Below are positions 3,365 to 56,773 of a stretch of DNA of 64,000 nucleotides, one piece after another. Within the stretch, counting starts at the first letter, position 1, and the number at the start of each line of letters is the position of its first letter. The DNA is from Candidatus Woesebacteria bacterium. Its GTDB lineage: Bacteria; Patescibacteriota; Microgenomatia; UBA12405. The notes beneath the pieces were generated by a model. It was not told the origin of the DNA. It did no database searches and worked only from the letters and a program-made list of their open reading frames with translations. Made by a program: the position numbers and the translations under genes. The stretch is taken from the NCBI GenBank assembly GCA_035402805.1, contig DAONDY010000002.1, positions 49,801-113,800 on the forward strand. The letters run 5' to 3'.

Positions 3365-3886
3365 ATGAAAAACGGGAGAACCGAAATTAATGATGGTTTG
3401 TATTACGATGAGAGATCGGCTGGCGGACTGGTTTATAAAAAAGAAAATAATAAGATATTATGGCTTTTAATAAAAACTATTTCTAACTTTACCAGTGAAA
3501 AAAATAAAAAAAGAGAAAATGATGGAGCGGTTTATAAATTTCCAAAGGGTCATTTAAAAAAGGATGAGTTTTTGAAAGAGGCAGCGTTAAGAGAAGTTGA
3601 AGAAGAAGGCCGGGTCAAGGCAAAAATTGTCACCAAATTGGGATCGAATGATTATTTGATTTGGGATAAAGAACAAAAAAAGAAAATTATTAAGAAAGTG
3701 ACCTTTTTTTTAATGGAATATACTGAACAAAGTAATTTAAAATATTACGATACTGAAATGGTGTTAGAGAGAGAATGGTTTGAATTTGACGAAGCAAGTG
3801 AAAAACTAGCCTATGATAGCGAAAAAGTTTTACTTAAAAAGGCAAAGATTGAATTAGATAAAATATTAAAACCCCTCTGTCGATAA
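3365..3886 (+). CDS. NUDIX hydrolase
   Basis: Nudix box FPKGHLKKDEFLKEAALREVEEEGRV. The last 5 codons and the stop lie inside repeat copy A1. Confidence 0.7.
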   Translation: MKNGRTEINDGLYYDERSAGGLVYKKENNKILWLLIKTISNFTSEKNKKRENDGAVYKFPKGHLKKDEFLKEAALREVEEEGRVKAKIVTKLGSNDYLIWDKEQKKKIIKKVTFFLMEYTEQSNLKYYDTEMVLEREWFEFDEASEKLAYDSEKVLLKKAKIELDKILKPLCR

Positions 3887-3917
3887 ATCGACAGCTCCCC
3901 TTGATGAAAGGGAGCCA
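3869..3917 (+). repeat. Family A two-hairpin dispersed repeat, copy A1
   Basis: ctctgtcgataaatcgacag (hairpin 1) followed by ctccccttgatgaaagggag (hairpin 2). Matches the family consensus. Confidence 0.8.
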
Positions 3918-3941
3918 TATTTTTGATAAAATAGCCAAACT

Positions 3942-14139: not shown

Positions 14140-14157
14140 GAATGTATTATAGCTTAA

Positions 14158-14214
14158 AATCCTCTCTGTCTCTCAACAAGCTCGAGACATCTCCCCTTAA
14201 CAAAGGGAGAAGTC
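14158..14214 (+). repeat. Family A repeat copy A2
   Basis: cctctctgtctctcaacaagctcgagacatctccccttaacaaagggagaagtc. Confidence 0.85.
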
Positions 14215-14234
14215 TTTTGTGGTAATATTCGGCT

Positions 14235-14798
14235 ATGAAATTGCTAATACATGCCTGTTGTGCAGATTGTCTATTAAAAATGGTGGAATCAATTAAATCA
14301 GAAAATAAATTTGATGAAATTCAGGTTTATTATTACAATCCAAATATTCATCCGAGATCAGAATATCAATCGAGATTAAAGGCAATACAATTAATGGTTG
14401 GTGATTTAAAAATGATAGTGGCTGATTGGAAACCAAGTGATTATTTTGAAGTTGTAAACCTCTCTCCGGATAAACCGGGATCTCTCCTTAACAAGGAGAG
14501 AAGTCTTCAAAAAGGGGTAAGATGTGAGAAATGTTGGAGGTTAAGATTAGAAAGGACGGCAAAGTTTGCAAAAGAAAATGGATTCGATGGTTTTAGCTCA
14601 ACATTATTAACAAGTGAATATCAAAATTCAGAAATGATTGAAAAAATTGGTGAAGAAATCTCCAAAAAATATAAAATTAAGTTTTTAATTCCTAAAAAGA
14701 TTTGTAAAAAATTAGAAACTAAGGGATTTTATAAACAAGTATTTTGCGGTTGCTGTTACTCCTTAGTAGAAAGGTTTGAAGAAAAGTTTAAGGGCTGA
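14235..14798 (+). CDS. queH: Epoxyqueuosine reductase QueH (DUF208), carrying an in-frame family A repeat insert
   Basis: LIHACCADC...CEKCWRLR...GFDGFSSTLL match DUF208/QueH Cys motifs. The repeat at 14459-14505 encodes NLSPDKPGSLLNKERSL. Confidence 0.7.
   Translation: MKLLIHACCADCLLKMVESIKSENKFDEIQVYYYNPNIHPRSEYQSRLKAIQLMVGDLKMIVADWKPSDYFEVVNLSPDKPGSLLNKERSLQKGVRCEKCWRLRLERTAKFAKENGFDGFSSTLLTSEYQNSEMIEKIGEEISKKYKIKFLIPKKICKKLETKGFYKQVFCGCCYSLVERFEEKFKG
14459..14505 (+). repeat. Family A repeat copy A3 (inside queH, in frame)
   Basis: cctctctccggataaaccgggatctctccttaacaaggagagaagtc. Confidence 0.8.
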
Positions 14799-27667: not shown

Positions 27668-27672
27668 TTTAT

Positions 27673-27719
27673 AATCCTCTCTGTCCTATGGACATCTCCC
27701 CTTAATAAAGGGAGAAGTC
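27673..27719 (+). repeat. Family A repeat copy A4
   Basis: aatcctctctgtcctatggacatctccccttaataaagggagaagtc. Confidence 0.8.
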
Positions 27720-27724
27720 TAAAT

Positions 27725-28183
27725 TTATAATTTAAAAAGTAATTTGAATAATAAAGTAAAAATAATTAAAAAGCCAACAGGAAAAACTACTTTTTGATAT
27801 GGAAAGAGAATCTTCCCATTATTTAATTTTCTGGAATAACGATCTATAAATATACCCAAAAACATAATTAAAAGACCCAAGCTTTGGCCAAAAATAATCT
27901 TATCAAGACCTAGTATTTTATTTGTAGGTAAACCAGTTTGATCAGTGTAAATAAAATAAAAAAGAGTAAATCCAAGCATTAAGAGAGAAAAAACAATAGA
28001 ATTGCCTAAAACTTTATTTTTGATTCTGGGAGCTAACCAAAAAGAAATAGCCGTGTTTAAAGCAGAAATCCATAAAGAAACTAAAAAGTCATCGACTCCT
28101 AAACGTTTAGCTAGAAGCATTCCTCCACCAACAGTAACAATACAGACAGGACATTGAGCATAAGCAGCTTTAACTAGAAACAT
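27725..28183 (-). CDS. Membrane protein (hypothetical)
   Basis: N-terminal CPVC followed by 4 TM helices. Confidence 0.45.
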   Translation of the reverse strand: MFLVKAAYAQCPVCIVTVGGGMLLAKRLGVDDFLVSLWISALNTAISFWLAPRIKNKVLGNSIVFSLLMLGFTLFYFIYTDQTGLPTNKILGLDKIIFGQSLGLLIMFLGIFIDRYSRKLNNGKILFPYQKVVFPVGFLIIFTLLFKLLFKL

Positions 28184-32075: not shown

Positions 32076-33047
32076 ATGAATGGGTTTGATAGAATGGTGA
32101 GTATGGAAGAAAAAATAATTTATGACTGCGTAATTATTGGTTCTGGACCAGCAGGCCTGACAGCAGCAATTTATAATGCCAGGGCTGACATAAAAACGAT
32201 AGTAATTGCAGGAAATCAACCTGGAGGTCAATTAACCATTACCCCAATGGTAGATAATTACCCAGGTTTTCCAAATGGAATAGGTGGATTCAAGCTAATG
32301 ATGGACATACAGACTCAGGTAAAAAATTTTGGGGTGGAAATTAGACAAGGATTGGTTAAACAAGTTTATAAAGTTGAAAGTTTATCAAGTTTTAAAGTGG
32401 AGTTGGAAAATGGTGAAACATTGGAAACAAAATCGATAATTGTAGCAACTGGAGCAGCGGTTAAATGGTTAAATCTACCGAGAGAAAAAGAATTAATAGG
32501 TCATGGATTGAGTAGTTGTGCAACTTGTGATGGAATGTTTTTCAGGGATAAAACAGTGGCGGTCGTTGGCGGTGGAGATACGGCTTGTGAAGACGCAGTG
32601 TTTTTATCAAAATTTACAAAAAAAGTTTATATGATAGTTAGGAGAGAAGAATTCAGAGCTAGTATGGCGGAACAAAAAGGGGTTTTTAAAAATGAAAAAA
32701 TAGAAATTCTTTGGAACACTGAAGTAAAAGAATTAAATGGATTGGAAAAATTAGAGTCTATAAAAATTATTAATAATAAAACTAACGAAGAAAAAACATT
32801 AGAATTAGATGGGTTATTTATCGCAATCGGCTACTCTCCGGCCACAAAATTTTTGGAAGGAATGGTTGATTTGAGAGAAACTGGGCAAATAATTACCGGT
32901 AAAAATGAAAAATTAGCAACTATGACAAATGTGGAAGGAATTTTTGCGGCTGGTGATTGTGTAAACGAAAATCATCGACAAGCAATTATTGCCGCTGGTG
33001 AAGGGTGTAGAGCGGCGTTGGAAACGCAAAAATGGTTAAAGGGTTAG
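32076..33047 (+). CDS. trxB: Thioredoxin-disulfide reductase
   Basis: FAD motif IIGSGPAG; redox CATCDG; NADPH motif VVGGGDTA. Confidence 0.85.
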   Translation: MNGFDRMVSMEEKIIYDCVIIGSGPAGLTAAIYNARADIKTIVIAGNQPGGQLTITPMVDNYPGFPNGIGGFKLMMDIQTQVKNFGVEIRQGLVKQVYKVESLSSFKVELENGETLETKSIIVATGAAVKWLNLPREKELIGHGLSSCATCDGMFFRDKTVAVVGGGDTACEDAVFLSKFTKKVYMIVRREEFRASMAEQKGVFKNEKIEILWNTEVKELNGLEKLESIKIINNKTNEEKTLELDGLFIAIGYSPATKFLEGMVDLRETGQIITGKNEKLATMTNVEGIFAAGDCVNENHRQAIIAAGEGCRAALETQKWLKG

Positions 33048-34223
33048 CTTTTTTATTTTAGAGACAAACTTTTCAGTAGAAAATTCCCGAGCGCGAAAAA
33101 TACAATCTTTTGGATTTATTTTTAATTTTTGAAGCTTTTTAATAGCTAAAATACAAGAATCAGCGGTTAATTTTTCAAAAAAGACACCAGTTTTACCGTC
33201 AATAACAGTTTCGGTGGTTCCGCCACTTTTATAGCCAATTACTGGACAGCCATAAGCCATGGATTCAACCGGAACTATACCAAAATCTTCGTTATCGGAA
33301 CAAAAAATAAAAGCTTTAGCATTTGAATAAAGACTGGCTTTTTGTTCTTGACTTATTTCGCCTAAAAATTCAATAGTGGGACCAGCCAGAGCTTTTAATT
33401 CTTCTGAAAAATTAGCAAAGTCACGACCGAATATTTTAAGTTTTAAACCTAATTGATTACAAGCTTGGATAGCAATATCATAGCGTTTAGCACGAGCCAA
33501 TCTGCCACCAGTTAGATAATATTGCTCAGATAATTTTTTACCGTGCTCACGCCCTTCGGTATTACACCTCGGATGTTGCGCGCGGAAAAAATCATCGTTC
33601 GCAATGTTTATTGTATCGATTGGTGGATTAATTATAAGGGCGTCGCGATGATAGAATTTTTGGATACGATCGGCAGTGGTCTGAGAATTAGCAATAAATT
33701 GATCAACATTTTGGGCTGACTTAAAATCAACTTTTCTTAAAAAGTGATTTAAAACCGAAACTAAGGCATAAATAATTTTATTTTGAGTGAAATTTCTAGC
33801 AGTAGGAAGACCATAGAGGTAACGAGGTGGAGTGTGACAATAACAAATTAATTTGGCATTTTTTTTATTGATTAAATTGGGGAAATAGGCACCAGTGGCA
33901 GAAGTAATGATAATGTCAAAGTTGGAAAAATCAAAAGATTTAAAAGCTAAAGGAGATAAAAGACGAAGTGGACTGATAATTTTATGGGCGAAGGGAATAT
34001 GCTGAAAAAAACTTTGATGAATTCGATTCCCCCATTTTTTTTCTAAGCGATCACGATGAGGGCCGAGAAATTCCGGTTTGTAGAGGGTAGTAAAAATTGG
34101 AGCATCGGGAAAAATTTCCGATAAATTTTCTAAAACCGATTCGGCACCACCAAATTCCTTAATATAATCGTGAACAAGAGCAATTTTAAATTTAGAAGAG
34201 TGATTGTTGATTGGAGATAACAT
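33036..34223 (-). CDS. GT4-family glycosyltransferase carrying an in-frame family B repeat insert
   Basis: C-terminal EDFGIVPVESMAYGCPVI. The repeat encodes RAQHPRCNTEGREHGKK. Confidence 0.75.
   Translation of the reverse strand: MLSPINNHSSKFKIALVHDYIKEFGGAESVLENLSEIFPDAPIFTTLYKPEFLGPHRDRLEKKWGNRIHQSFFQHIPFAHKIISPLRLLSPLAFKSFDFSNFDIIITSATGAYFPNLINKKNAKLICYCHTPPRYLYGLPTARNFTQNKIIYALVSVLNHFLRKVDFKSAQNVDQFIANSQTTADRIQKFYHRDALIINPPIDTINIANDDFFRAQHPRCNTEGREHGKKLSEQYYLTGGRLARAKRYDIAIQACNQLGLKLKIFGRDFANFSEELKALAGPTIEFLGEISQEQKASLYSNAKAFIFCSDNEDFGIVPVESMAYGCPVIGYKSGGTTETVIDGKTGVFFEKLTADSCILAIKKLQKLKINPKDCIFRAREFSTEKFVSKIKKLTL
33537..33602 (+). repeat. Family B repeat copy B1 (GC-rich ~65 bp; inside the GT4 CDS)
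   Basis: ccgtgctcacgcccttcggtattacacctcggatgttgcgcgcggaaaaa is about 88% identical to the copy at 52816-52880. Confidence 0.8.
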
Positions 34224-35145
34224 TTTCTTTTTTATCTATTTTAACTGGATTTTGTTTTTGAATGCGAGAAATTAGAGATTTGAAATTGTAGATTTTAAAA
34301 AGAGAAATCAAATTTAAGAAGGAAGTTTGATCAAATTTTGATTGGGAAAGTTTAAAATTAAGAGGGATATTGCTGACTAATGTAGCTAATTTTTGCGAAA
34401 GATAGGCATTGTCTTTATTTTTTTCTAGTTTTTCTTTAACTGAAACTTTAATCTGATCTAAATTTTTATAAATATTATCTAAATTCTGATATTTATTAAG
34501 CAAATCAATGGCAACTTTGGGACCAATACCGGCAACGCCCGGATAATTATCAGACATATCCCCCATTAAGGCCTTTAAATCGATAACTTGTGTTGGAAGA
34601 ACACCTAATTTTTCTTGAACATCCTTAGTTTTAAATATTTTAGTTTCGGAAAGGCCACGAATAGGAACAAAAAGAGAAACTTTTTCGTTAACAAGCTGCA
34701 TTAAATCCTTGTCACCAGTGATGATAATAACCTCATCAACTATTTTTCTTTTATGTTTGGTTTTCTTTTTAAGAGCTTTGATAGTAAGAGTGGCAATTAA
34801 ATCATCAGCCTCAAACCCACCCATAGAAAAAGTATTAATTTTAGCTTCTTTTAGGGTTGATTCTAATAAAGGAAGCTGAGAGATTAATTCATGGTCGGCT
34901 GGTTTACGTTTAGCCCGATAACCTAAAAATTCATGATTTCTAAAATTTGGACCTGGAGAATCAAGACAGACGGCTAAATATTTAGGTTTAAGAATGTTAA
35001 TGGCAGTAAGAAGCATGGAATAAAAACCATAAAGAGCGTTAACTGGTTGACCATTGGAATCTAGCGGCGGAATGGAGTGATAGGCACGATGAATGACGGC
35101 ATGACCATCGATAATAACAAGTTTAGACATATAGTAGTTTATCAA
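34192..35145 (-). CDS. 5'-3' exonuclease (Pol I N-terminal-like / FEN family)
   Basis: LVIIDGHAVIHRAYHS; acidic clusters (GFEADD, ITGDKDL); C-terminal helix-hairpin-helix region. Confidence 0.8.
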   Translation of the reverse strand: MINYYMSKLVIIDGHAVIHRAYHSIPPLDSNGQPVNALYGFYSMLLTAINILKPKYLAVCLDSPGPNFRNHEFLGYRAKRKPADHELISQLPLLESTLKEAKINTFSMGGFEADDLIATLTIKALKKKTKHKRKIVDEVIIITGDKDLMQLVNEKVSLFVPIRGLSETKIFKTKDVQEKLGVLPTQVIDLKALMGDMSDNYPGVAGIGPKVAIDLLNKYQNLDNIYKNLDQIKVSVKEKLEKNKDNAYLSQKLATLVSNIPLNFKLSQSKFDQTSFLNLISLFKIYNFKSLISRIQKQNPVKIDKKENVISNQQSLF

Positions 35146-35173
35146 GTTAAGGATTTGCTGGTAGAATTAAAAG

Positions 35174-36088
35174 ATGGAACAACACCCTATTCCACAGCAG
35201 ATATCATCCTACGAATTTAAACTTGTGGGAGATATGACCTTGAAACAATTTTTAAAGGCAGGAGCAGGAATAATTTTAGCAATACTGATTAATTCGACTA
35301 AATTAATAGTCTTGGTTAAATGGCCATTGATGCTTTTGTTTGGTGCTGGTGGTTTATTGTTGGCGTTTGTACCGTTCGCAGACAGACCTTTGGAGTCTTG
35401 GATAGTTTCTTTTATAAAAGCAATTTATTCACCAACGATTTATACCTATCAGAGAAAAGGTAATAAAAATTGGCTAGATTTAGATTTGACAAAAACAACG
35501 AAACAAAGCGAAGAAGATATTGTAGTTTCTAAAACTAGATCACCGTCTTTAGGAAGTAAAATAAAAGACAGTATCGCCACAATGGGGATAAAAATTAACA
35601 AGGAAGAAAGACAAACTGAAGAGACTGAAGCAACTGAAAATATAAAAACAGAGACTAAAGTAATTCCAAGACAAGCAAAAGTTGAAGAAGTTAAAAAGGG
35701 AGCTGTTAATGAAATACAAAAAGATGATTGGAGGGATCAAAAAGTTGATCTAAACTTAAAAACAGAAAAACTTGGAGCAACCGGTGAAGTTATTTTTGGA
35801 AGTATACCAATGCCAGATATTCCAGAAATTCCAAATGTAGTGGTGGGAATGGCAACGGATAGAGATGGAAAAATAGTTGATGCAGTTATTGTGGAAATTC
35901 AGGATGAAAATGGAAATCCATCAAGAGTATTAAAAACAAATTCCTTAGGGCAATTTAAAACAACTACCCCATTGGCTAATGGTAGATACCTGATAATTGC
36001 AGAGAAAGACGGTTATAATTTTGATAGAGTTAATATAGACTTGAAAGGACAAATAGTTCAACCGGTCAAAATAATTGCTAATAGTTAA
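35174..36088 (+). CDS. T4SS-associated membrane protein: N-terminal VirB3/PrgI-like TM hairpin plus C-terminal CarbopepD_reg-like beta domain
   Basis: Two adjacent TM helices (GIILAILIN..., LMLLFGAGGLLLAFVPF); C-terminus GRYLIIAEKDGYNFDRV. Lies immediately upstream of VirB4. Confidence 0.45.
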   Translation: MEQHPIPQQISSYEFKLVGDMTLKQFLKAGAGIILAILINSTKLIVLVKWPLMLLFGAGGLLLAFVPFADRPLESWIVSFIKAIYSPTIYTYQRKGNKNWLDLDLTKTTKQSEEDIVVSKTRSPSLGSKIKDSIATMGIKINKEERQTEETEATENIKTETKVIPRQAKVEEVKKGAVNEIQKDDWRDQKVDLNLKTEKLGATGEVIFGSIPMPDIPEIPNVVVGMATDRDGKIVDAVIVEIQDENGNPSRVLKTNSLGQFKTTTPLANGRYLIIAEKDGYNFDRVNIDLKGQIVQPVKIIANS

Positions 36089-36797
36089 AAATAAAATGCC
36101 AACAGATCCATTAAAAATCGCCATTAAGGGAAGCACTCAAGAACATTTACCAATAGAGGATATTATAGATGGGATTGTGATGTTAAAGGATGGTTCTTGT
36201 TCGATAGTTTTGAGCGTTTCTTCGGTCAATTTTGATTTATTATCAGAGCAAGAACAATCTGCTTTGGTTTTTGCTTATGGCGGAATTATAAATTCTCTAA
36301 ATTTTCCAATTCAAATTATTATCCAATCACACTCTAAAGATGTGAGCTCTTATCTAAAAAACTTGGAAAACATACAAGAAAAACAAGTCAATCCTCAGCT
36401 AAAAGAGAGAATTAAACAATATCGAAAATTTATAGAAGAAACGGTCAAGAAAAATAATGTGTTGTCTAAATCTTTTTATATTGCTGTTAGTTTTTCGACC
36501 TTAGAATTGGGAATCAAAAGTGGCGGAGTTAAAGGGGCAATGATGTTTTTGCCAAAAAACAAAAAACAGGAACTGCCTTTTACTAAAGAGTATATTTTAG
36601 AAAAGGCTAAAGCTAGTTTAGAACCAAAAAGAGATCATTTAGTTAGACTATTTTCAAGATTAGGACTGGAAATAGAACCATTAAACAATAAAAAATTGAT
36701 TGACCTTTTTTATAGAACTTACAATGAAGAAACAGCTATTAATCAAAAAATTCAAAACGTAAACTATCAAGCACCGGTAGTAAATGGAGAAAAATAA
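36075..36797 (+). CDS. Hypothetical T4SS-associated protein
   Basis: ORF between the VirB3-like and VirB4 genes on the same strand, with overlapping ends. Confidence 0.4.
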   Translation: MLIVKNKMPTDPLKIAIKGSTQEHLPIEDIIDGIVMLKDGSCSIVLSVSSVNFDLLSEQEQSALVFAYGGIINSLNFPIQIIIQSHSKDVSSYLKNLENIQEKQVNPQLKERIKQYRKFIEETVKKNNVLSKSFYIAVSFSTLELGIKSGGVKGAMMFLPKNKKQELPFTKEYILEKAKASLEPKRDHLVRLFSRLGLEIEPLNNKKLIDLFYRTYNEETAINQKIQNVNYQAPVVNGEK

Positions 36798-39207
36798 AAT
36801 GAAATTATTCAACAAAAAAACACCACCAGCAAATAATCCGACTCCAGTAAAAGAGAACGAAAATCAAAGAGATTTTACGTCTGGATTGGTAACAACCAAA
36901 GATATAATTGCCCCCGCCTCTTTAGAGGTAGATTTCAATCATATTAGAATTGACAATAAATATTACCGAACCTTATTTGTGGCAGCATATCCGAGATTTG
37001 TAGGGATTAATTGGCTGTCATCATTAATTAATTTTGATTCATCTTTAAACATTTCGATGTTTATTTATCCGACTGATGGAAAAGAAGTTTTAGATGATTT
37101 GAGAAGAAAAATTACGGAAATGGAGGCTGAATTGAGCACTGATATTCAAAGAGGAAGATTGATTAATCCAGCAACCCAAGCAAAATTGGAAGATGCCTTA
37201 AATTTACAAGCCAACTTGGTCAAAGGAGAGGAAAGATTTTTTCAATTCGGGCTTTATATCACGATAACCGCAGACACAGTGGCAGAATTGGATAGAACCA
37301 ATAAAAATTTAGAGGCAGCTTTAGGATCGCTTTTGATTGTGAGTAAAAGGGCCACTTTGCAAATGGAAGACGGTTTTATAACAACATTGCCAATTTGTCG
37401 AGATAAATTGTCGATTAGTCGAAACATGGATACAACATCTTTGGCAACAACTTTCCCTTTTGTATCTTCTGATTTATCCGATGATAGGGGTGTTATGTAT
37501 GGGGTTAATATGCACAATGGGTCGCTGGTTATTTTTGATCGATTTTCAATGCAAAATTACAATTCAGTAGTTTTTGCGACAGCCGGTGCTGGTAAGTCTT
37601 ATTTAATTAAACTGGAAGTGCTTCGATCATTAATGATGGGGACTGAAATTATTGTCATCGATCCAGAAAATGAATATAGAGAATTATGTGTTAGTTCTGG
37701 TGGTCAATATATTGCTTTTGGTTATGGAGAGGGTTCTAAAATTAATCCATTTGATTTAACTTTAGCCGAAGAAGAGGGTGAAAATGGTTTAAATACTAAA
37801 ATTCTATCGCTTCATAAATTATTAAAAGTAATGTTGGGAGAAATGGATCCAATCGAAGAGTCAATTATGGATAGAGCAATGATGGATACCTATAAAATGA
37901 AGGGTATTACACCAGACCCAGCAACTCAAAATAAGGAGGCACCACTAATCGAAGATTTATATAAATCACTGATTGGGATGGAAGATGAAAAGGCAAAGAG
38001 CTTGGCTGCTAGATTGGAAAAATATATCAAAGGATCTTTTGCTGGAATTTTTAACCAAAAAACAACAGTGGAGTTAAATAATAAATTTGTGGTTTTTGGA
38101 ATTAAAAATCTAGAAGACGTGTTGAGACCAGTGGCTATGCAAATTATTTTGGACTATATTTGGACGGTAGTTAAAAAGACACTTAAAAAGAGAATACTGG
38201 TGGTTGATGAGGCTTGGTATTTAATGCAACATGAAGATTCGGCAGAATTTTTAAGAGGAATTGTTAAGAGAGGAAGAAAATACTATTTAGGAGTAACAAC
38301 AATTACCCAAGATGTGGATGATTTCTTGGAAACTGCCTATGGTAAGGAAATTGTTACTAATAGCGCAATCCAAATCTTATTAAAGCAACACAGTGCAGCA
38401 ATTGATCAAATTGGAGAAGTTTTTTATCTAAGTCAAGGGGAAAAACAGTTGTTATTATCGGCAAACAAGGGAGAAGGGATATTTTTTGCTGGACAAAATC
38501 ATGTGGCGATACAAGTAATTGCGTCAGAAGATGAACATAACTTAATTACATCGAATCCTGAGGATGTGTTAAAAAAACAAAATCTGTTGGGTAACTCCAA
38601 ACCAGATAATGGTTTTAAGGCGCCGATTCAAAATCCCTCTGTCAATAAATTGACATCTCCCTTTGATGAAAGGGAGAAATTAAAAATAGAAGAAGTTAAA
38701 AAAGTTGAAGTGGTACCTAAAATTAATATTCCAGAAATAAAAACCATAGAAATTGAAAACAAAATAAATAAACCGGTTGAACTTGAAGAAAAAAAGCCTT
38801 TAGTACCAGAAAATCAAATTAAACCAGAAATAAAAGATGAATCGGTTTTATTTAAAAAACCAGAAGTGGTAGTAATTCAAAACCCCTCAGTCCCCGATAA
38901 ATCAGTGACAGCTCCCCTTGATAAAAGGGAGCCATTAAAACTAGAAATAAATAAACCTGTTGAAATTAAAGTTGAAGAAGTTAAAAATGAAATCAAAAAA
39001 CCAATTTTTATAAAAAACGAGGAAAAGAGTATTCCCCAACCACCACAATTAAGCAAAAAACCACAACCAGTGTTTGACTTAAACCCACCTGCCCCCGTCG
39101 GGGCACCCTCCCTTGAAAATGGAGGGCAAAAAAATATAAGTGAAACGAAAAAAGATAATTCTGGAAAGATGGATTATGATAAATTGTTTGGTAACGGAAT
39201 AGTCTAG
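36784..39207 (+). CDS. virB4: VirB4/TrbE/CagE-like conjugation-type ATPase with a ~200-aa repeat-derived low-complexity C-terminal tail
   Basis: Walker A VFATAGAGKSYL; Walker B ILVVDEAWYLM; 807 aa. The tail contains repeats A5, A6 and A7. Confidence 0.85.
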   Translation: MEKNKMKLFNKKTPPANNPTPVKENENQRDFTSGLVTTKDIIAPASLEVDFNHIRIDNKYYRTLFVAAYPRFVGINWLSSLINFDSSLNISMFIYPTDGKEVLDDLRRKITEMEAELSTDIQRGRLINPATQAKLEDALNLQANLVKGEERFFQFGLYITITADTVAELDRTNKNLEAALGSLLIVSKRATLQMEDGFITTLPICRDKLSISRNMDTTSLATTFPFVSSDLSDDRGVMYGVNMHNGSLVIFDRFSMQNYNSVVFATAGAGKSYLIKLEVLRSLMMGTEIIVIDPENEYRELCVSSGGQYIAFGYGEGSKINPFDLTLAEEEGENGLNTKILSLHKLLKVMLGEMDPIEESIMDRAMMDTYKMKGITPDPATQNKEAPLIEDLYKSLIGMEDEKAKSLAARLEKYIKGSFAGIFNQKTTVELNNKFVVFGIKNLEDVLRPVAMQIILDYIWTVVKKTLKKRILVVDEAWYLMQHEDSAEFLRGIVKRGRKYYLGVTTITQDVDDFLETAYGKEIVTNSAIQILLKQHSAAIDQIGEVFYLSQGEKQLLLSANKGEGIFFAGQNHVAIQVIASEDEHNLITSNPEDVLKKQNLLGNSKPDNGFKAPIQNPSVNKLTSPFDEREKLKIEEVKKVEVVPKINIPEIKTIEIENKINKPVELEEKKPLVPENQIKPEIKDESVLFKKPEVVVIQNPSVPDKSVTAPLDKREPLKLEINKPVEIKVEEVKNEIKKPIFIKNEEKSIPQPPQLSKKPQPVFDLNPPAPVGAPSLENGGQKNISETKKDNSGKMDYDKLFGNGIV
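38631..38678 (+). repeat. Family A repeat copy A5 (inside the VirB4 tail, in frame)
   Basis: aaatccctctgtcaataaattgacatctccctttgatgaaagggagaa. Confidence 0.75.
38881..38931 (+). repeat. Family A repeat copy A6 (inside the VirB4 tail)
   Basis: aacccctcagtccccgataaatcagtgacagctccccttgataaaagggag. Confidence 0.7.
39087..39130 (+). repeat. Degenerate family A-like copy A7 (inside the VirB4 tail)
   Basis: cctgcccccgtcggggcaccctcccttgaaaatggagggc keeps the two-hairpin architecture. Confidence 0.5.
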
Positions 39208-39223: not shown

Positions 39224-41068
39224 TTGATGATGGCAAATGGTGTTAGAGATAAAATTAACGAGCTTTCTGGTGATAGCAGATTTTTGTCTGCAGTTATTGA
39301 AAATATCTTTCAAGAAAAAGAAATAAAAACCAGTAGGGAGGAGGTTGGTGAATTGGTAAGGGTTATTGGGCAAGAATCTAGAGGTAAAAGCGAGAGTGAA
39401 ATTCAAATAGAGGCAAAAAAAATCAGTTTAGAAATTGAAAGGTGGAAAGAAAAAAATCCCGATTTGTCAAAAGAATATAAAAAAGAAGAATTCAAAAAAA
39501 ACTTTCACGAAGAGGCAAAAAAAATAAACCCTAGTTTAAGCGAAGAACAATCAAAAAAAATTGAAGAATATGGTGAATTAGTATCAGATAACTCCTTTGA
39601 TAAAAACGTTTTAGATGGTTATCAGAACGAAGCCTTAGAGGCTAACAAAGATTTTGGACCGGGAAAATTAGAAAACTCATGGTCTGATTTAAAACAGGTA
39701 GTTAATTTTATACAGAAAAGTCCAGAAGAAATAAAAAATATCAAAGATAAATACAATTCTTTAAAGGAGGGTTTAAAAGACGTTAAGGTTCCAAGTAATT
39801 CGAAAGAGGTTAGATCTTTTGAAAAGATTGTATCTAGTTTAAATAACCCAGGGACAGATCAATTATTTTCTAAAACAAAAAATTTTTTAGGTCGGTTGGA
39901 TAAAATAGATAAACTGACTGGTGGATGGTTAAATAAAACGGTAACTGACGCTGGAATGAAAATGGTGAGTAAGATTGGGAATCAGACAATACAAGAATTT
40001 GCAACGAATTCATTAAATGTATTAGTAAAGGAAGGATTTCAACAAGGATTTTCGACAGTTTTGAATGGAGTTTTAAGCGGAGGAGTAAAAGCAGCGGCAA
40101 CAACTGGAACAACAGGTGGAGTGGCAACAGCAACTGGAGTAGCAGCAACCAGTGCAACTGGAGCTGCGGCTGGTGCAACTGGAGCTGCGGCTGGTGGAGC
40201 AGCGGCGGCAACTGGAGCAGCGGCGGCAGGATTATCAGCGACTGGAATTGGAGCAATTGTTGTAGCTGCAGCGGCGGTTCTTAAAGTTGTAAAAGATGTG
40301 GGAAATAAAATAGCAGAAAAATTAGGAATTGATACTAAACAATTTTTTGAAGAAAAATTTGGAAAAGTAGGAGGATTTTTTGTTAAACAAACTATAAAAA
40401 TAACAACGATAACAACAATATCGTTAATACCAATAATTGTTGTTGGATTGGTTATTTTTTTGTTTATCAATGCAATATCTACGGGTTCTTCAGTTTCTAG
40501 TTTAGTGCCACCGGGTGATGAAGTTCAAATATCTGAGACATTGTATGATGAAACCTATGTTTCATCTAATGAACCAATTGTTTTACCGACAGTAATTAAA
40601 AACCAAAAACCAACTGGACAAATGATTGTAGATATGGCTCGATCTCTGTCGGCTAAGGTTTGTTATTATTGGGGCGGAAAAAGTAATGTTATTGGTATTG
40701 ATCCAAAATGGGGTCAAAAAATAACTCCTGATCATATGGGAAGAGATATTGCTGGGCTGGATTGTTCTGGTTTTGTTAATTGGGTTTATCACCAATATGG
40801 ATATAGTCTGGGAAAAATTAAAAGTATGTATGATAATTACACACCAATTAGTGAAAATGATTTACAACCTGGCGATATAGGAATTATAGGTTATGAAATA
40901 AATGGTAAAAATGGATGGCATGTAGGAATATTTACAGGAAGAGATGCTGAAGGTAAATCGATGTGGATTCACTCAGGGTCAACGTCAAAAAGTTTAGGTG
41001 TTTGTAAATCTGGTTTTGTGGCTGAAACTCATGATCCTGGATTTACAAAATTTGCGAGAATATTATAA
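39224..41068 (+). CDS. T4SS-associated cell-wall hydrolase: coiled-coil and Gly/Ala/Thr-rich region, TM, and C-terminal NlpC/P60 (CHAP-like) peptidase
   Basis: C-terminus GLDCSGFVNWVYHQYG...GDIGIIGY...WHVGIFTG (catalytic Cys/His). Low-complexity stretch AATTGTTGGVATATGVAATSATGAAAGATGAAAGG. Confidence 0.7.
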   Translation: MMMANGVRDKINELSGDSRFLSAVIENIFQEKEIKTSREEVGELVRVIGQESRGKSESEIQIEAKKISLEIERWKEKNPDLSKEYKKEEFKKNFHEEAKKINPSLSEEQSKKIEEYGELVSDNSFDKNVLDGYQNEALEANKDFGPGKLENSWSDLKQVVNFIQKSPEEIKNIKDKYNSLKEGLKDVKVPSNSKEVRSFEKIVSSLNNPGTDQLFSKTKNFLGRLDKIDKLTGGWLNKTVTDAGMKMVSKIGNQTIQEFATNSLNVLVKEGFQQGFSTVLNGVLSGGVKAAATTGTTGGVATATGVAATSATGAAAGATGAAAGGAAAATGAAAAGLSATGIGAIVVAAAAVLKVVKDVGNKIAEKLGIDTKQFFEEKFGKVGGFFVKQTIKITTITTISLIPIIVVGLVIFLFINAISTGSSVSSLVPPGDEVQISETLYDETYVSSNEPIVLPTVIKNQKPTGQMIVDMARSLSAKVCYYWGGKSNVIGIDPKWGQKITPDHMGRDIAGLDCSGFVNWVYHQYGYSLGKIKSMYDNYTPISENDLQPGDIGIIGYEINGKNGWHVGIFTGRDAEGKSMWIHSGSTSKSLGVCKSGFVAETHDPGFTKFARIL

Positions 41069-41468: not shown

Positions 41469-42587
41469 TTAGTCTTGTAATCTTACCGGCATAATAATGT
41501 GAGAAAAATCTGGATCGGATTGATCGCGGAAAAAAGCTGGAGTTAATGATTCATTCAATTCAATAATAATTTCTTGACTCTTACAAACATTTAAGAAATC
41601 CATTAAAAATTTGTAATTAAAGGCAATTTCTAAAACTTCACCATCAACTTTAGCATCAACAGTAGCTTTGTTTTGACCAATTTGGGGAGCATTGGCGGTC
41701 AATTCAATAGAATTGGATTTAATATTAAAACGAACGACATTAGCTGATTCTTTAGCAAAAACAGAAGCCATTTTAACCGCTTGAATAAATTCATCTTTGT
41801 TTAAAAAGACTTTAGTAGAAAAAGATTCAGGAACAATTCTTTGATATGCTGGATATTCGCCCTCTATAAGTCGAGAAACCAGCTCTATATCGTCTAAAAC
41901 GAAGACAACTTGATGTTCGTCGGTAGTTAAACCAATTTTGACTTTAGAGTTAGTTTTAGCGAGTTTAGTGACCTCTAAAAGGGATCTGGCGGGGATAAGA
42001 AAAGTGATTTGTTCGGTTTTTAAATCAATAGGATTAATTAATTTAATTTCTTTAAAAGATAATCTAAATCCATCAGTGGCAACTAGTTTTAGACTATCAG
42101 ACGTAAATTGACAAAGGATAGCGGTTAAAACTGGACGACTATCATCAACAGCAGCAGAAAAAGCAATTTGAGAAACGGCCTGAGTTAAAACATTTAAATC
42201 TAATTCAAAACAAGTATTAGGATTTAAAGAGGGAAAATCAGGATAATCTGTTGATGGATTAGTGGTAAAAGTTGATTCGGTTTTAGATGAAGATAAATTT
42301 AATAAATTATCACCTTTTAAAGAAATATCTATTTTTCCTGGAGTTAAATAAGAAACAAATTCAGTAATTTCACGCGAAGGAATAGTAATTGTCCCCTCTT
42401 CTTCGACTTTAGCACCAATCCAATAATTAATACTTAATTCTAAATTAGTGGCAGATAATTTAAGACGACCATTATCTGTGGATAATAAAATATTATTTAA
42501 AATAGGAAGTTGATTTTTAGAAGAAACAAATCGAGAAACGTTAGTTAGAGCAGTATTTAAATTTTCTTGTAAAAGGGAAAGTTTCAT
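41469..42587 (-). CDS. dnaN: DNA polymerase III beta sliding clamp
   Basis: 372 aa with a three-domain clamp architecture (MKLSLLQENL...); sits immediately downstream of dnaA. Confidence 0.85.
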   Translation of the reverse strand: MKLSLLQENLNTALTNVSRFVSSKNQLPILNNILLSTDNGRLKLSATNLELSINYWIGAKVEEEGTITIPSREITEFVSYLTPGKIDISLKGDNLLNLSSSKTESTFTTNPSTDYPDFPSLNPNTCFELDLNVLTQAVSQIAFSAAVDDSRPVLTAILCQFTSDSLKLVATDGFRLSFKEIKLINPIDLKTEQITFLIPARSLLEVTKLAKTNSKVKIGLTTDEHQVVFVLDDIELVSRLIEGEYPAYQRIVPESFSTKVFLNKDEFIQAVKMASVFAKESANVVRFNIKSNSIELTANAPQIGQNKATVDAKVDGEVLEIAFNYKFLMDFLNVCKSQEIIIELNESLTPAFFRDQSDPDFSHIIMPVRLQD

Positions 42588-42895
42588 TGTCTTATATTAT
42601 CAAAAAATGATTTTAATTTAAAGCTTTTATAAAAATGATTTATCAAAAAAATAGTAGTAATGGTTAGTAGAGGGTGTTGATAAGTGGAATAAAAATAAAA
42701 TTGACGGAAAGATATAGAAAAATTTATTTTTAATGGGAGTGAATTAATTAAAAATGATTCTAAAATAGGCATAATTTGATTTTTTGTCTTATAATTTGAT
42801 TTGGAGTTTGGGTAAGTTTCGGGGGAAAAATAAAAAATAAATTGTGGATAAAATTGTGGATAAGTGGTCTTATTAGGTGGATAACTTTTAAATAA
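42588..42895. other. Candidate oriC (dnaA-dnaN intergenic): AT-rich with clustered DnaA boxes
   Basis: tgttgataa at 42676-42684; tgtggataa at 42844-42852 and 42856-42864; gtggataac at 42877-42885. An AT-rich stretch lies at 42600-42660. Confidence 0.6.
42843..42886. promoter_or_regulatory. Cluster of three DnaA boxes (TTATCCACA on the reverse strand)
   Basis: attgtggataaaattgtggataagtggtcttattaggtggataac. Confidence 0.65.
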
Positions 42896-44233
42896 TTAAA
42901 AAGCACTTTTAATTTGGTTAATAAGTTGACGGGTTTGTGAATTAGTGGAAAAGTCACTGTGGATTTTGTCTCGAGCATGCATAATACTGGTGTGGTCACG
43001 ACCACCAAGGAGATGTCCAACTTCTTCTAAGGGTAGGTTTATTTGGGTTAGAAGTAGATAAGCAGTAATATGGCGGGCAGTAACTAAATCTTTTTTACGA
43101 CTTTTTCCACAAAGGTCACTAGTTTTGATATTAAAGTGTTTAGCACAAACTGAAATAATATGACGAGGATTTAGTTTAGTAGTTAGTTCAAAATTATTAG
43201 TTTGTAAATTAGGATTAAAAAAGTTTTGAACAAAAGGAAGATCAATATCCCCTATTTGTTGAGCCATAGCTTGAACAGAAATTTGTTGAAGTTTACCTTC
43301 AATTTCGCGGATATTTGATTCAATATTATTAGCTAAAAATTCGACAGCTTCGGGAGTAATTTTAATTCCCTTTTCTTCTATTTTTTGACTAATTATGGCA
43401 ATCCGCATTTCATAATCGGGAAGTTGAATATCAACAGTTAAACCACCCATAAAACGAGAAACGAGACGGTCTTCAAGATGATCAATTTCACTGGGTTTAC
43501 GATCAGAAGTTAAAATAACTTGTTTACCGTTCATGTGAAGAGAATTAAAAGTGTGAAAAAATTCTTCTTGGGTATATTCTTTTCCAGCAATAAATTGAAT
43601 ATCATCAACTAAAATACAATCTAAATTACGGTATTTATCTTTAAATTGGTTCATAGTTTTGCTCTTAAGAGCATTAACCAACTCATTACCAAAAGTTTCG
43701 GCGGAGAAGTATTTTATTTTTAAATCTGGATTTTTTTTGAGAAGTTCATGACCGATAGCTTGCATTAAATGAGTTTTACCAACACCTACCCCGCCCCAGA
43801 TAAAGAAAGGATTATAAGAAAGACCCGGGTTTTTTATAATTCCTTGGGCGGCAGCATAGGCAAAATTATTACTATTACCAACAACTAAAGTGTCAAAGGT
43901 ATATTTAGGGTGAAGATTAGAGTTATTAGTTTTATTTGGATTGTAGGAAAAAAGCGGAGTGGAATTGGTATCAGTATCAGTTTTGATAATTTCTTGAACA
44001 ATAAAATTAAGGGTATTATCGGCTTTAGTTTGATTATCGAGAGCGTTTTTGATGATGTCGTAATGGCGTTTTTTATTGAAATCAACAGAATAAGTGTTGG
44101 GACAACCAATAGTGGCAATATTATTTTCAATGTTTACGAGTTGGGTTTTTAAAACAAAAGTTTGAAAGATGGCTGGTGCAAGATTAATTTTCAACTCTTC
44201 TTGAGTATTTTTCCAAATTCGGTCAATATCCAT
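42896..44233 (-). CDS. dnaA: Chromosomal replication initiator DnaA
   Basis: AAA+ Walker A GGVGVGKTHLM; Walker B ILVDDIQF; C-terminal DNA-binding domain (RHITAYLL...GGRDHTSIMHA). Confidence 0.9.
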   Translation of the reverse strand: MDIDRIWKNTQEELKINLAPAIFQTFVLKTQLVNIENNIATIGCPNTYSVDFNKKRHYDIIKNALDNQTKADNTLNFIVQEIIKTDTDTNSTPLFSYNPNKTNNSNLHPKYTFDTLVVGNSNNFAYAAAQGIIKNPGLSYNPFFIWGGVGVGKTHLMQAIGHELLKKNPDLKIKYFSAETFGNELVNALKSKTMNQFKDKYRNLDCILVDDIQFIAGKEYTQEEFFHTFNSLHMNGKQVILTSDRKPSEIDHLEDRLVSRFMGGLTVDIQLPDYEMRIAIISQKIEEKGIKITPEAVEFLANNIESNIREIEGKLQQISVQAMAQQIGDIDLPFVQNFFNPNLQTNNFELTTKLNPRHIISVCAKHFNIKTSDLCGKSRKKDLVTARHITAYLLLTQINLPLEEVGHLLGGRDHTSIMHARDKIHSDFSTNSQTRQLINQIKSAF

Positions 44234-44238
44234 TTGAT

Positions 44239-44288
44239 ATCCCTCTTCCGCCGAAAGCGGATTTCCCCTTTTGATGAAAAGGAGACAA
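44239..44288 (+). repeat. Family A repeat copy A8 (variant)
   Basis: atccctcttccgccgaaagcggatttccccttttgatgaaaaggagac. Confidence 0.7.
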
Positions 44289-44332
44289 AATAATAATTAG
44301 GCAGTAAGATGGGCAAAAGTTTTAAATCGAAA

Positions 44333-44383: not shown

Positions 44384-44400
44384 AGAAAAGATATCAAATG

Positions 44401-44450
44401 AAACCCCTTTGTCGATAAATCGACATCTCCCCTTGATGAAGGGGAGAAAT
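44401..44450 (+). repeat. Family A repeat copy A9
   Basis: aaacccctttgtcgataaatcgacatctccccttgatgaaggggagaaat. It produces the spurious N-terminal extension of the ORF called at 44349. Confidence 0.8.
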
Positions 44451-44489
44451 TATTTTTCTAATATAAAAAATAGATTTTGTGTTAAAATA

Positions 44490-44636: not shown

Positions 44637-44640
44637 AAAC

Positions 44641-44698
44641 AAATCCCCTCTGTCTCTCGACAGGCTCGAGACACCTCCCCTTAACAAAGGGAGAAGTC
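44641..44698 (+). repeat. Family A repeat copy A10
   Basis: aaatcccctctgtctctcgacaggctcgagacacctccccttaacaaagggagaagtc. Confidence 0.85.
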
Positions 44699-44722
44699 AT
44701 TATAAAATGATAAAATTTAGGT

Positions 44723-46551: not shown

Positions 46552-47799
46552 GTGTGGCTATTTCTGTTTTTACTTTTAATTCCAACTCAATTAGGTCGAC
46601 ATTTTTGGCCTGATTGGAGTTATGTGTTGGGAATTAGGGTTGATTACCTATCCCCTACTTTATATTTATTGGATTTGGTTTGGATTGGAATATTAGTTAA
46701 AAGTTTAAAGTCGAAAGTTGGTCAAATAAAAAACTTTTTTAATTTTAAAAATTTACTAATTTTGGGATTTATAGCGATAAATATCCTAATAGCAGTAAAT
46801 CCATGGGTGGCAGTTTATAAATGGCTTAGAATAGGGCAACTATTAATCAGTTTTTGGTATTTTAGAGAAAATAAAAAAATAATAAAAGAAAAGTTAATAA
46901 AAATCATTCCTTGTTGGATTGTTTTTGAAAGCTTATTGGCGGTGGCGCAAATAGCAAAGAATGGAAGTTTAAATGGGATTTTTTATTGGCTGGGGGAAAG
47001 AAGTTTTACTTTTAGCACGATTGGAATTGCTCAGATTTCAGTTTTAGGACGGGGTTTGATTAGGGCTTATGGAACTTTTTCACATCCGAATAGTTTGGCT
47101 GGATTTTTATTAGTAAGTTTGTTGTTGTGGTATTGGATAAAACCTCTCTGTCTCGATAAATCGAGACATCTCCCCTTAAAAAAGGGAGAAGTCTTTTTAA
47201 ATATTTTTTGGTGGGCGGTGTTTTGGTTGGGGTTATTGGGAATATTAGTTTCTGGAAGTAGAACTGTTTGGGTTTTAAAGTTAGGATTAATTTTATTTTT
47301 GGTTTTAAGGAATTTGAAAAATAAGAAAAACATTATTGGTTTTATTTTATTATTTTTGGGAGTAGTGGCTTTTGTCTTAAGATTGGTAAATATGGAATAT
47401 CATGTTTCAGATTTTTTGGGAGGGTGGGATTCTGATGGAATTGAAAAAAGAATCCAATTAAATATTTCCGGGTTAAAAATGATTAAAGAATCCCCTTGGT
47501 TTGGGGTGGGTTTAGGAAATTTTTTGGTAAGATTACCTGAATTTCAAAAAAATAATGGAATTTTTTGGCTACAGCCAGTACATAATATTTTAATTTTAGC
47601 TTTGAGCCAGGTGGGAATATTGGGACTAGTAATATTAATTTATAATTTTCGATTTCTAATTTTTGAAAATAAGAAAAGAGATAATTTTGTTTTTAAAATA
47701 ATTTTGGGAATAGTGATAATAACAGGAATGATGGATCATTATTGGCTGACGTTACCCCAAAATTGGTGGCTATTAACTTTGGTTTTGGGAATGATTTAA
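46552..47799 (+). CDS. O-antigen ligase-like (Wzy_C) membrane protein with an in-frame family A insert
   Basis: Polytopic, with a Wzy_C-like loop (GSRTVWV...). The repeat at 47141-47193 encodes KPLCLDKSRHLPLKKGEV. Confidence 0.6.
   Translation: MWLFLFLLLIPTQLGRHFWPDWSYVLGIRVDYLSPTLYLLDLVWIGILVKSLKSKVGQIKNFFNFKNLLILGFIAINILIAVNPWVAVYKWLRIGQLLISFWYFRENKKIIKEKLIKIIPCWIVFESLLAVAQIAKNGSLNGIFYWLGERSFTFSTIGIAQISVLGRGLIRAYGTFSHPNSLAGFLLVSLLLWYWIKPLCLDKSRHLPLKKGEVFLNIFWWAVFWLGLLGILVSGSRTVWVLKLGLILFLVLRNLKNKKNIIGFILLFLGVVAFVLRLVNMEYHVSDFLGGWDSDGIEKRIQLNISGLKMIKESPWFGVGLGNFLVRLPEFQKNNGIFWLQPVHNILILALSQVGILGLVILIYNFRFLIFENKKRDNFVFKIILGIVIITGMMDHYWLTLPQNWWLLTLVLGMI
47141..47193 (+). repeat. Family A repeat copy A11 (inside the CDS, in frame)
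   Basis: aacctctctgtctcgataaatcgagacatctccccttaaaaaagggagaagtc. Confidence 0.85.
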
Positions 47800-47847
47800 T
47801 CCTCTCTCCGGATAAACCGGTATCTCCCCTTAACAAAGGGAGAAGTC
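47798..47847 (+). repeat. Family A repeat copy A12 (overlaps the stop codon of the ligase gene)
   Basis: aatcctctctccggataaaccggtatctccccttaacaaagggagaagtc. Confidence 0.85.
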
Positions 47848-47878
47848 TTTATTTTGTTATTTTAAGTTAAAATAAATT

Positions 47879-56647: not shown

Positions 56648-56667
56648 ATAAAAGTTTAACAGAAATT

Positions 56668-56724
56668 AAACCTCTCTGTCTCTCGATAAACTCGAGACAT
56701 CTCCCCTTAAAAAAGGGAGAAGTC
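56668..56724 (+). repeat. Family A repeat copy A13
   Basis: aaacctctctgtctctcgataaactcgagacatctccccttaaaaaagggagaagtc. Confidence 0.85.
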
Positions 56725-56773
56725 GTTAATGCAATAGATTGCAGAAAAAAGTAGGTAAAGGTATAATTGGAGC

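Follow-up and report, generated by a model that had tools for sequence, protein, structure and literature searches.

The VirB4 gene and its C-terminal tail

The 64-kb stretch of DNA analyzed here (hereafter the window) encodes a VirB4-type ATPase of a type IV secretion system (T4SS), and the C-terminal tail of this protein contains three in-frame copies (A5, A6, and A7) of a short repeat made of two adjacent hairpins that recurs elsewhere in the window (Table 1). We consider it likely that this strand-locked twin-hairpin mini-element finds a permissive sink in an ancestral, disordered VirB4 tail that carries conserved linear motifs, and that the three copies are passengers rather than the origin of the tail.

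The VirB4 protein matches PF19044 (111.2 bits against a cutoff of 25.8) and PF12846 (AAA_10; 52.8 bits against 27.5) in Pfam, DUF87 (PF01935) also matches the open reading frame (ORF), and the nearest solved structure is the VirB4 ATPase domain 4AG5, which aligns to amino acids (aa) 229-589 with an E value of 3e-49. Walker A (ATAGAGKS, aa 265-272) and Walker B (ILVVDEAW, aa 471-478) motifs can be read off the translation, and residues G268, G270, K271, S272, D475, and E476 are invariant among 64 VirB4 homologs. Flanking T4SS genes encode PrgI-like (35174-36088) and TraC-like (36075-36797) proteins and an NlpC/P60 hydrolase (39224-41068), and the window also encodes dnaN, dnaA, rpmH, rnpA, yidC, and ftsH. 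On the minus strand, 22 kb from virB4, lies a T4SS pilin array (61234-63497) of six small paralogous tandem ORFs, five of which match PF18895; it is similar to the VirB2 arrays known from Microgenomatia. The T4SS of Patescibacteria is described as chromosomal and of monoderm type and, in Microgenomatia, as located near dnaA/dnaN/rnpA (PMC12102498). Because the Pfam matches, the 4AG5 alignment, the T4SS neighbors, the pilin array, and the published location agree, the gene is a chromosomal VirB4-type motor ATPase of a monoderm-like T4SS in an ultra-small Microgenomatia (Woesebacteria/Shapirobacteria) bacterium from the Candidate Phyla Radiation (CPR). Public annotation starts it five codons downstream, giving a product of 802 aa; a 100% identical protein (P0001) is present in NCBI, JGI, ENA, and Logan and is carried by metagenome-assembled genomes publicly annotated as Woesebacteria/Shapirobacteria. 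The protein shares its P-loop TraG/VirB4 domain, Walker motifs, and gene neighborhood with the VirB4/PrgJ/TraE ATPases of monoderm conjugation and of the Patescibacteria T4SS (PMC12102498), but canonical and solved VirB4 ATPase domains stop where the present core stops (4AG5 to aa 589), whereas the present protein adds a tail.

An earlier, sequence-only reading of this DNA had put the end of the ATPase core near residue 600 (nt 38580), and the evidence agrees: the Pfam domain spans aa 255-564, the 4AG5 alignment aa 229-589, and the final predicted helix residues 592-603 in an AlphaFold2 model built from 64 homologs. In this model, which is weak as a whole (mean predicted local distance difference test score, pLDDT, 51.5), no secondary structure is predicted beyond residue 603, and tail pLDDT is 26-43. 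Pfam assigns nothing to the last 240 residues of the protein. The tail is K/P/E-rich. The K/E/P/V-rich repeats described earlier between the element copies do have a biased composition (K 17%, P 13%, E 12%), and their repetitiveness is weak.

Table 1. The VirB4 gene, its tail, and all element copies, by nucleotide position in the window (aa, VirB4 residues)
Feature	Position	Strand	Description	Basis
VirB4-type T4SS ATPase gene	36784..39207	+	807 codons + stop, no interruption	ORF listing; Pfam PF19044/PF12846/PF01935
P-loop ATPase domain	37546..38475	+	aa 255-564, TraG/VirB4 type	Pfam
C-terminal tail	38594..39204	+	aa 604-807, 204 residues, K/P/E-rich, predicted disordered	pLDDT, composition
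A5	38627..38684	+	Family A, both hairpins intact; translated (Q)NPSVNKLTSPFDEREKL(K)	Leave-out profile; fold -12.1 kcal/mol, z -4.9
Conserved tail motif VPKINIPEIKTIEIENKI	38713..38766	+	aa 644-661; P650 nearly invariant; non-element; duplicated in longer orthologous tails	
Conserved tail motif ESVLFKKPEVVV	38839..38874	+	aa 686-697; F690 nearly invariant; nucleotide identity to orthologs 0.75-0.92	
A6	38875..38939	+	Family A, hairpin 2 intact, hairpin 1 degraded; translated (Q)NPSVPDKSVTAPLDKREPLK	Leave-out profile
Conserved tail motif KKPIFIKNEEKSIPQPPQLSKKPQPVF	38995..39075	+	aa 738-764; F742/Q752/P753/Q755 invariant; differing codons mostly synonymous	
A7	39075..39137	+	Sister subfamily, stems TGCCCC/GGGGCA and CCCTCC/GGAGGG; translated LNPPAPVGAPSLENGGQKNIS	Fold -11.8 kcal/mol
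Conserved C-terminal motif KMDYDKLFGNGIV	39166..39204	+	aa 795-807; Y798/F802 invariant	
Family-A copy	3865..3924	+	Gives last five codons (KPLCR) and stop of NUDIX gene 3365-3886	
Family-A copy	14156..14219	+	Intergenic, between divergent genes	
Family-A copy	14451..14510	+	In frame within QueH gene 14235-14798, VirB4 frame; translated NLSPDKPGSLLNKERSL	
Family-A copy	27672..27725	+	Intergenic, between two minus-strand genes; site empty in L002, L033, L011, filled in L012	
Family-A copy	44397..44456	+	Intergenic, dnaA-rpmH spacer	
Family-A copy	44638..44704	+	Intergenic, rpmH-rnpA spacer; absent in L004, L033	
Family-A copy	47137..47199	+	In frame within O-antigen-ligase-like (Wzy_C) gene 46552-47799, other frame than VirB4; translated KPLCLDKSRHLPLKKGEV	
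Family-A copy	47793..47853	+	Begins at Wzy_C stop codon; absent in L004, L005, L012; sister subfamily there in L001, L033	
Family-A copy	56664..56730	+	Intergenic, between divergent genes	

The tail has a framework of its own that is shared among relatives. The 120 best VirB4 homologs are 743-960 aa long, most align across 97-100% of the query, and nearly all, including every one inspected, terminate in a KMDYDKLFGxGIV motif. Tail alignments recover the common elements PKINIPEIK, ESVLFKKPEVVV, KKPIFIKxEExIPQPPQLxxKPQPVF, and the terminal KMDYDKLFGxGIV. In a 64-sequence alignment, the tail has invariant residues at F742, Q752, P753, Q755, Y798, and F802 and nearly invariant ones at about 15 further positions, while A5, A6, and A7 contain no conserved residue. 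Orthologous loci came from a comparison set of the window plus 84 related loci (L001-L084), all of which were fetched via VirB4 and are syntenic. The C-terminal motif closes 49 of 55 extracted orthologous tails, although these differ by many indels, each a multiple of three in length. Among codons that differ across 13 orthologs, 212 of 309 (69%) are synonymous in the motifs, compared with 62 of 307 (20%) in the element segments. On the strength of this difference, the tail appears to be translated, with motifs that bear a clear signature of purifying selection and element segments that look unconstrained as protein. Thus, the conserved and the noise parts of the VirB4 tail can now be separated.

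This architecture is narrowly distributed. VirB4s at 44-46% identity end 2-7 residues past the core, and intermediate, Microgenomatia-like VirB4s have unrelated low-complexity tails of 50-130 aa; only a sub-clade of Microgenomatia has the tail of predicted disorder that bears IPQPPQL and MDYDKLFGxGIV motifs. In a published survey of Patescibacteria T4SSs, a term search returned no mention of a VirB4 tail, extension, or disorder (PMC12102498). IPQPPQL and MDYDKLFGxGIV probably serve as docking sites, and the tail may be a docking module on the T4SS motor. Two related loci deviate at their tails: in L011 (11777-12127) the tail is truncated after 116 residues and ends in LQLQLQ.., probably through a frameshift, and at the 3' end of L010, where the contig stops, it enters low-complexity (TP)n sequence.

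A family of twin-hairpin elements

The 12 copies in the window amount to about one per 5 kb, and each is 45-66 nt long. An element begins with an AAAyCCyCTC box, followed by hairpin 1 and then by (G)ACATCTCCCCTT-loop-AAGGGAGA(AGTC). Hairpin 2 is conserved, as TCTCCCCTT..AAGGGAGA or CCCTCC..GGAGGG, and hairpin 1 is sequence-variable. We analyzed the family by per-copy folding, iterated nhmmer, and a stem-length-versus-shuffle test, with no covariance model. Folded as single-stranded DNA, all 12 window copies form twin adjacent hairpins, with z scores of -2.1 to -5.7 against shuffled sequences. Hairpin 1 has 43 different arm sequences among 100 distinct copies, and its perfect stem averages 5.0 bp compared with 2.8 bp in shuffles. 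RNAalifold on a MAFFT alignment of the 12 copies recovered hairpin 2 alone, hairpin 1 being length-variable and misaligned. A pattern search of the related loci found 28 copies of a sister subfamily, AAACCCACC-[hairpin 1]-CACCCTCCCTTGA..GGAGGGC, several of them intergenic.

All three repeat peptides that the sequence-only reading had noted in the tail are present and in frame: NPSVNKLTSPFDEREKLK at aa 617-634 (A5), NPSVPDKSVTAPLDKREPLK at aa 700-719 (A6), and PPAPVGAPSLENGGQKN at aa 768-784 (A7). A profile built from the nine window copies outside the tail matches A5 at 38629-38678 (E 1.5e-10, 36.7 bits) and A6 at 38877-38931 (E 1.4e-10, 36.8 bits), which confirms the family as real. This leave-out family-A profile gave no match to A7 at E <= 10. 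All three have the 5' AAAyCC box and two adjacent stem-loops, with both stems intact in A5 and A7 and hairpin 1 degraded in A6. A7 had been called degenerate; judged by its two intact hairpins and its resemblance to the 28 copies in related loci, it is better described as an intact member of the sister subfamily.

Several observations locate the activity of the element at the DNA level. Half of the window copies (6/12) are intergenic and half overlap coding sequence. Among relatives, the reverse complement of the element is translated in the inter-domain linker of an upstream minus-strand GT4 glycosyltransferase. Because there are intergenic copies, copies in other frames, reverse-complement use, and clean filled and empty intergenic sites, the element acts as DNA. 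Its coding potential is permissive: of the six frames, three to five lack a stop codon in most variants when translated in silico, and the commonest frame encodes the hydrophilic, proline-rich peptide NPSVPxxxxxAPLDKREPLK.

Searches for a known counterpart were negative within their scopes. At gathering thresholds, Rfam finds tRNA-Ser alone in the whole window and has no family for the element; at relaxed thresholds on the tail it returns sub-threshold noise alone. Two element patterns have no matches among IMG/VR viral contigs, so phage carriage is not indicated. Concatenated element peptides from the non-VirB4 frames have no match at E <= 10 in a collection of 5.8 billion proteins, a search in which the motif is too short for the size of the database. 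A reading of the elements as intrinsic terminators was rejected, as a terminator scan flags the copy at 44426 alone and the tail copies are not followed by a T-run. Full-text literature searches found no such repeats described for CPR/Patescibacteria.

A few features accompany individual copies. The region of the Wzy_C gene around the 47137 copy varies in length among orthologs. At 27660-27690, the reverse complement of the 5' box supplies the minus-strand ORF 27152-27667 with a Shine-Dalgarno-like AGAGAGG, 8 nt upstream of its ATG, and this sequence is not present at the empty orthologous site of L002. A second repeat, family B, is GC-rich and 56 nt long, and its two copies share 95% identity. 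One (33535-33590) lies within the minus-strand GT4 gene 33036-34223, in the same linker that holds reverse-complemented family A in relatives, and the other (52812-52867) is intergenic, upstream of ftsH.

Turnover of element copies and the origin of the tail

Codon alignments define three recurrent sites in the tail, which follow the sequences ..PIKPIQN, ..KKPEVVVxQN, and ..KPQPVF(D/E)x. Loci L001 and L040 have ATPase cores 96.5% identical to that of the window, and in both, site 3 (which holds A7 in the window) is empty. At site 2, the A6 site, the hairpins are deleted in L040 with the flanks CAAAAT and GAACCTGTAAAA remaining, and a different hairpin-1 variant (GTCCCAAC/GTTGGGAC) is present in L001. 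Across orthologs, site 3 holds both subfamilies and at least six hairpin-1 variants, including other variants in L002, L005, L006, and L012. Elements have thus been gained, replaced, degraded, and lost among relatives with 94-96% identical ATPase cores. These data uphold one part of the sequence-only reading, namely that an insertion- and deletion-prone hairpin element, acting at the DNA level, entered the translated tail in frame several times. In L003 and L045, site 3 also contains an extra small hairpin segment (..TTTCCGCCAAAGGCGGATCAGCCTGTGGCTGA..) nested in the hairpin-2 loop, which keeps the frame and adds about 11 residues.

Counts over the whole set of tails give the same picture of turnover in quantitative form. 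By iterated profile, 46 distinct orthologous tails of 170-342 aa have 0-3 copies each (mean 0.83) and 17 of them have none, counts that are lower bounds because the profile misses degraded or other-frame copies such as KPFPNPSLDRAGQI and ETLRPADTSLDRAA. The tail in the window, with three, has the maximum among the orthologs examined. Tail length and copy number correlate at r = 0.25. At least three reading registers are used within VirB4 tails, and 35 of 38 distinct tail copies share one.

The sequence-only reading had gone further and proposed that repeated insertion and duplication of the hairpin element generated the tail itself. The density of copies lends this idea some support: three of the 12 window copies fall within 0.61 kb, about 26-fold over expectation (Poisson P ~2e-4). 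The element share could also be underestimated through the missed other-frame copies, and ancient copies could have decayed, as the recurrent DSPSPKATEEQ after PQPVF in distant orthologs might indicate. Nevertheless, we regard a repeat-derived tail as unlikely. The conserved motifs are dissimilar to the element and under apparent purifying selection, and this non-repeat framework, an outcome that the sequence-only reading itself had named as a refutation, persists in orthologs, including the 17 tails without a recognizable copy; length is nearly independent of copies; elements make up only 51 (by profile envelopes) to 65 (by peptide spans) of the 204 tail residues, or 25-32%; and the other Microgenomatia-like VirB4s have low-complexity tails unrelated to this one.

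Alternatively, the hairpins may act in the virB4 mRNA as stabilizers or as pause or processing sites and be kept for regulation, as could be suggested by the perfect stems of A5 and A7 within coding sequence and by a hairpin 1 that varies yet remains self-complementary. This explanation is likewise improbable, since element orientation tracks the DNA strand rather than transcription, with antisense copies within and between minus-strand genes, and since the copies lack an Rfam family and, in the tail, a T-run after hairpin 2 and differ in presence between close relatives. It is less probable still that selection at the protein level acts on the NPSV..PLDKREPLK segments as functional peptide repeats, binding motifs for example, with the intergenic look-alikes being incidental. 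The single register shared by nearly all tail copies fits such a role, as does a peptide that is hydrophilic and proline-rich like the tail. Yet the element has no conserved residue in the 64 homologs and a synonymous share of only 20% among differing codons, copies are found in some and missing from other relatives with 96%-identical cores, and identical DNA occurs as non-coding sequence, in other frames, and reverse-complemented in unrelated proteins; what is retained is hairpin complementarity, a nucleic-acid property. Finally, the tail might be an untranslated, repeat-rich 3' region mistaken for coding sequence through a missed stop, frameshift, or assembly error near nt 38580; an erroneously missed stop was a caveat raised in the sequence-only reading. 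The probability of this is negligible, as the ORF is open, five contigs from independent assemblies encode its exact 802-aa product (which excludes an assembly artifact), nearly all orthologous tails run open to the same C-terminal motif with indels in threes, the motifs carry a signature of purifying selection, and we found no support for it beyond the presumed frameshift that shortens the L011 tail.

We therefore return to the tail as a permissive sink. In this lineage, a probably ancestral extension of some 170-340 residues, predicted to be disordered, carries three to four conserved linear motifs with unconstrained spacers between them. Element copies would come and go at A-rich sites throughout the genome, in a single orientation relative to the G-rich strand, and coding insertions would survive only where 15-22 added residues are tolerated and the frame stays open. 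The lysine- and asparagine-rich, structureless spacers of the tail would tolerate the element, leading to the accumulation of A5, A6, and A7; that the element is stop-free in several frames and that its commonest peptide is hydrophilic and proline-rich argue for such a role of the spacers. The tail copies would alter the length and sequence of spacers between motifs while being neither the origin nor the functional core of the tail. We infer that they are near-neutral and that disorder is the reason for their tolerance. The earlier suggestion of a variable surface or spacer region fits in its second half, as a spacer between conserved linear motifs. VirB4 ATPases lie on the cytoplasmic side of the secretion machine, which makes a surface role unlikely.

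Three points weigh against the permissive-sink interpretation. Some "empty" sites may be deletions, as site 2 of L040 clearly is, which leaves the balance between gain and loss uncertain. The intrinsic disorder of the tail is a prediction, taken from the weak model described above. Furthermore, the perfect hairpins that A5 and A7 retain in coding DNA could mean that the copies inserted recently or that their structure as DNA or RNA is under selection, which makes neutrality a tentative reading.

Proteins of CPR/Patescibacteria are noted for insertions and extensions that are lineage-specific and whose origin is obscure. A source of such insertions would be visible in action here, with a dispersed mini-repeat entering coding DNA in frame and being tolerated in disordered spacers. 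We know of no cultured representatives of these organisms, and of few recognizable mobile elements in them.

Strand orientation, mobilization, and known repeat systems

Every element copy examined has the same orientation. The plus strand carries all 12 window copies, all 113 profile matches in the window and the 84 loci (E < 0.01), and all 28 sister-subfamily copies. Outside the VirB4 tails there are 39 strong matches, with 19 in no long ORF, 10 in plus-strand ORFs, and 11 in minus-strand ORFs; because copies also sit in minus-strand ORFs, orientation is independent of transcription. The plus strand is the G-rich strand throughout. Its GC skew at four-fold sites has the same sign on either side of dnaA/rpmH, with values of +0.27 for plus-strand genes and +0.76 for minus-strand genes. 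Mutational strand asymmetry of this kind goes with the leading strand (the template of the lagging strand).

The window contains an origin-type gene cluster (41469-46542), with minus-strand dnaN and dnaA followed by plus-strand rpmH, rnpA, yidC, and an R3H/Jag-like gene. A replication origin at dnaA/rpmH (~44.3 kb) was considered and found unsupported, as the four-fold-site skew keeps its sign on both sides. Either the skew-defined origin lies elsewhere or the skew has another cause.

Transposition coupled to the replication fork through single-stranded DNA gives an orientation lock of this kind in IS200/IS605 and has been proposed for REP/RAYT (PMC5027513, PMC6006769). By analogy, a trans-acting enzyme might mobilize the elements on single-stranded lagging-strand-template DNA at the fork, in an IS200/IS605- or REP/RAYT-like manner, a mechanism we put forward only tentatively. 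The same strand lock would result if a polar motif, for example the G-rich run GGGAGAAG, were under selection. Three further findings weaken the case for fork-coupled mobilization. The lock is observed within a single syntenic region, with no stretch of opposite skew among the loci, and may have a region-specific cause. None of the ~60 window ORFs matches a transposase or HUH family, including RAYT and TnpA, at E <= 1e-6 in Pfam (a search of the window alone). Finally, three filled intergenic sites, compared with their empty counterparts, have duplicated A/T-rich flanks of differing lengths (TTAA, TTAAA, and TTTATAAT), which may be target duplications or coincidence in AT-rich DNA and which, if real, argue against a peel-and-paste single-strand mechanism. 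In any case, the strand lock offers a testable handle on mobilization and possibly on replication direction or chromosome polarity. A wider proposal is that the elements form an undescribed non-autonomous class in Patescibacteria, mobilized as single-stranded DNA at the fork, that inserts into and excises from A-rich codons of disordered segments and is a main source of lineage-specific insertions and tail-length variation in CPR proteins, including the essential T4SS motor; this seems to us possible, though rather doubtful.

The closest functional analog that we can name, by comparison of layout and location, is the Rickettsia palindromic element (RPE). As Ogata et al. reportedly described in 2000, RPEs are small, palindromic, dispersed repeats found between genes and in frame within many unrelated genes of a reduced genome. 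They are also treated in a review of MITEs (miniature inverted-repeat transposable elements; PMC10969869). Like RPEs, the present elements are non-coding, dispersed palindromic repeats that occur in intergenic DNA and in frame within unrelated genes, where they add short peptides at permissive sites; their hosts are VirB4, QueH, Wzy_C, NUDIX, and GT4, plus the six intergenic window copies. RPEs, however, measure ~100-150 bp, consist of a single long palindrome, and are restricted to Rickettsia (RPE-1 to RPE-10), whereas the present element has 45-66 nt, two short adjacent hairpins with a variable first stem, a conserved 5' box, a home in Patescibacteria, and one orientation.

The element also shares features with repeats that are processed as single strands. 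Repetitive extragenic palindromic (REP) sequences, including bacterial interspersed mosaic elements (BIMEs) and the REPIN-RAYT system (HUH Y1), are likewise short, dispersed hairpin repeats in many copies, with a box beside the stem and presumed single-stranded processing on the lagging-strand template (PMC3116915, PMC6006769). REPs are extragenic by definition and begin with a 5' GTAG-type tetranucleotide, and REPINs are inverted REP pairs; in contrast, our elements have an AAAyCCyCTC box and two dissimilar hairpins, 6/12 of the window copies overlap coding sequence, and the window has no RAYT gene. Palindrome-associated transposable elements (PATEs) derived from IS200/IS605 resemble our element in having hairpins and no terminal inverted repeats, and IS200/IS605 is strand-specific through the lagging-strand template (PMC5027513), so insertion of this type would yield the orientation lock seen here. 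The end hairpins of a PATE are alike and both recognized by TnpA, and no target is duplicated, whereas our element combines a hypervariable hairpin 1 (43 arms) with a conserved hairpin 2, possible A/T-rich flank duplications, and no TnpA in the window. Unlike MITEs, it has no terminal inverted repeats: its 5' end AAACCTCTCTGTC and its reverse-complemented 3' end AAAGACTTCTCCC agree at 7/13 positions, and self-complementarity is internal. The element therefore fails the defining features of RPEs (length and form), REPs (extragenic location), MITEs (terminal inverted repeats), and PATEs (paired similar hairpins).

Two other kinds of repeat were seen in the window. An AT-rich motif, AAGTTTATMAAGTTGAAAGTTTAT, recurs at 1593-1633, 32359-32391, 35116-35148, and 45026-45077. 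One copy lies between rnpA and yidC, and the 35116 copy is immediately upstream of the first gene of the T4SS cluster, which encodes the PrgI-like protein. The motif may act as a promoter or operator, or it may recur by chance in AT-rich DNA. A tRNA-Ser gene (4275-4361) is followed by four partial copies that resemble its 3' half (4849-4914, 5289-5354, 6094-6159, and 6851-6885), interleaved with small genes. These partial copies could be remnants of serial integration or decayed tRNA genes.

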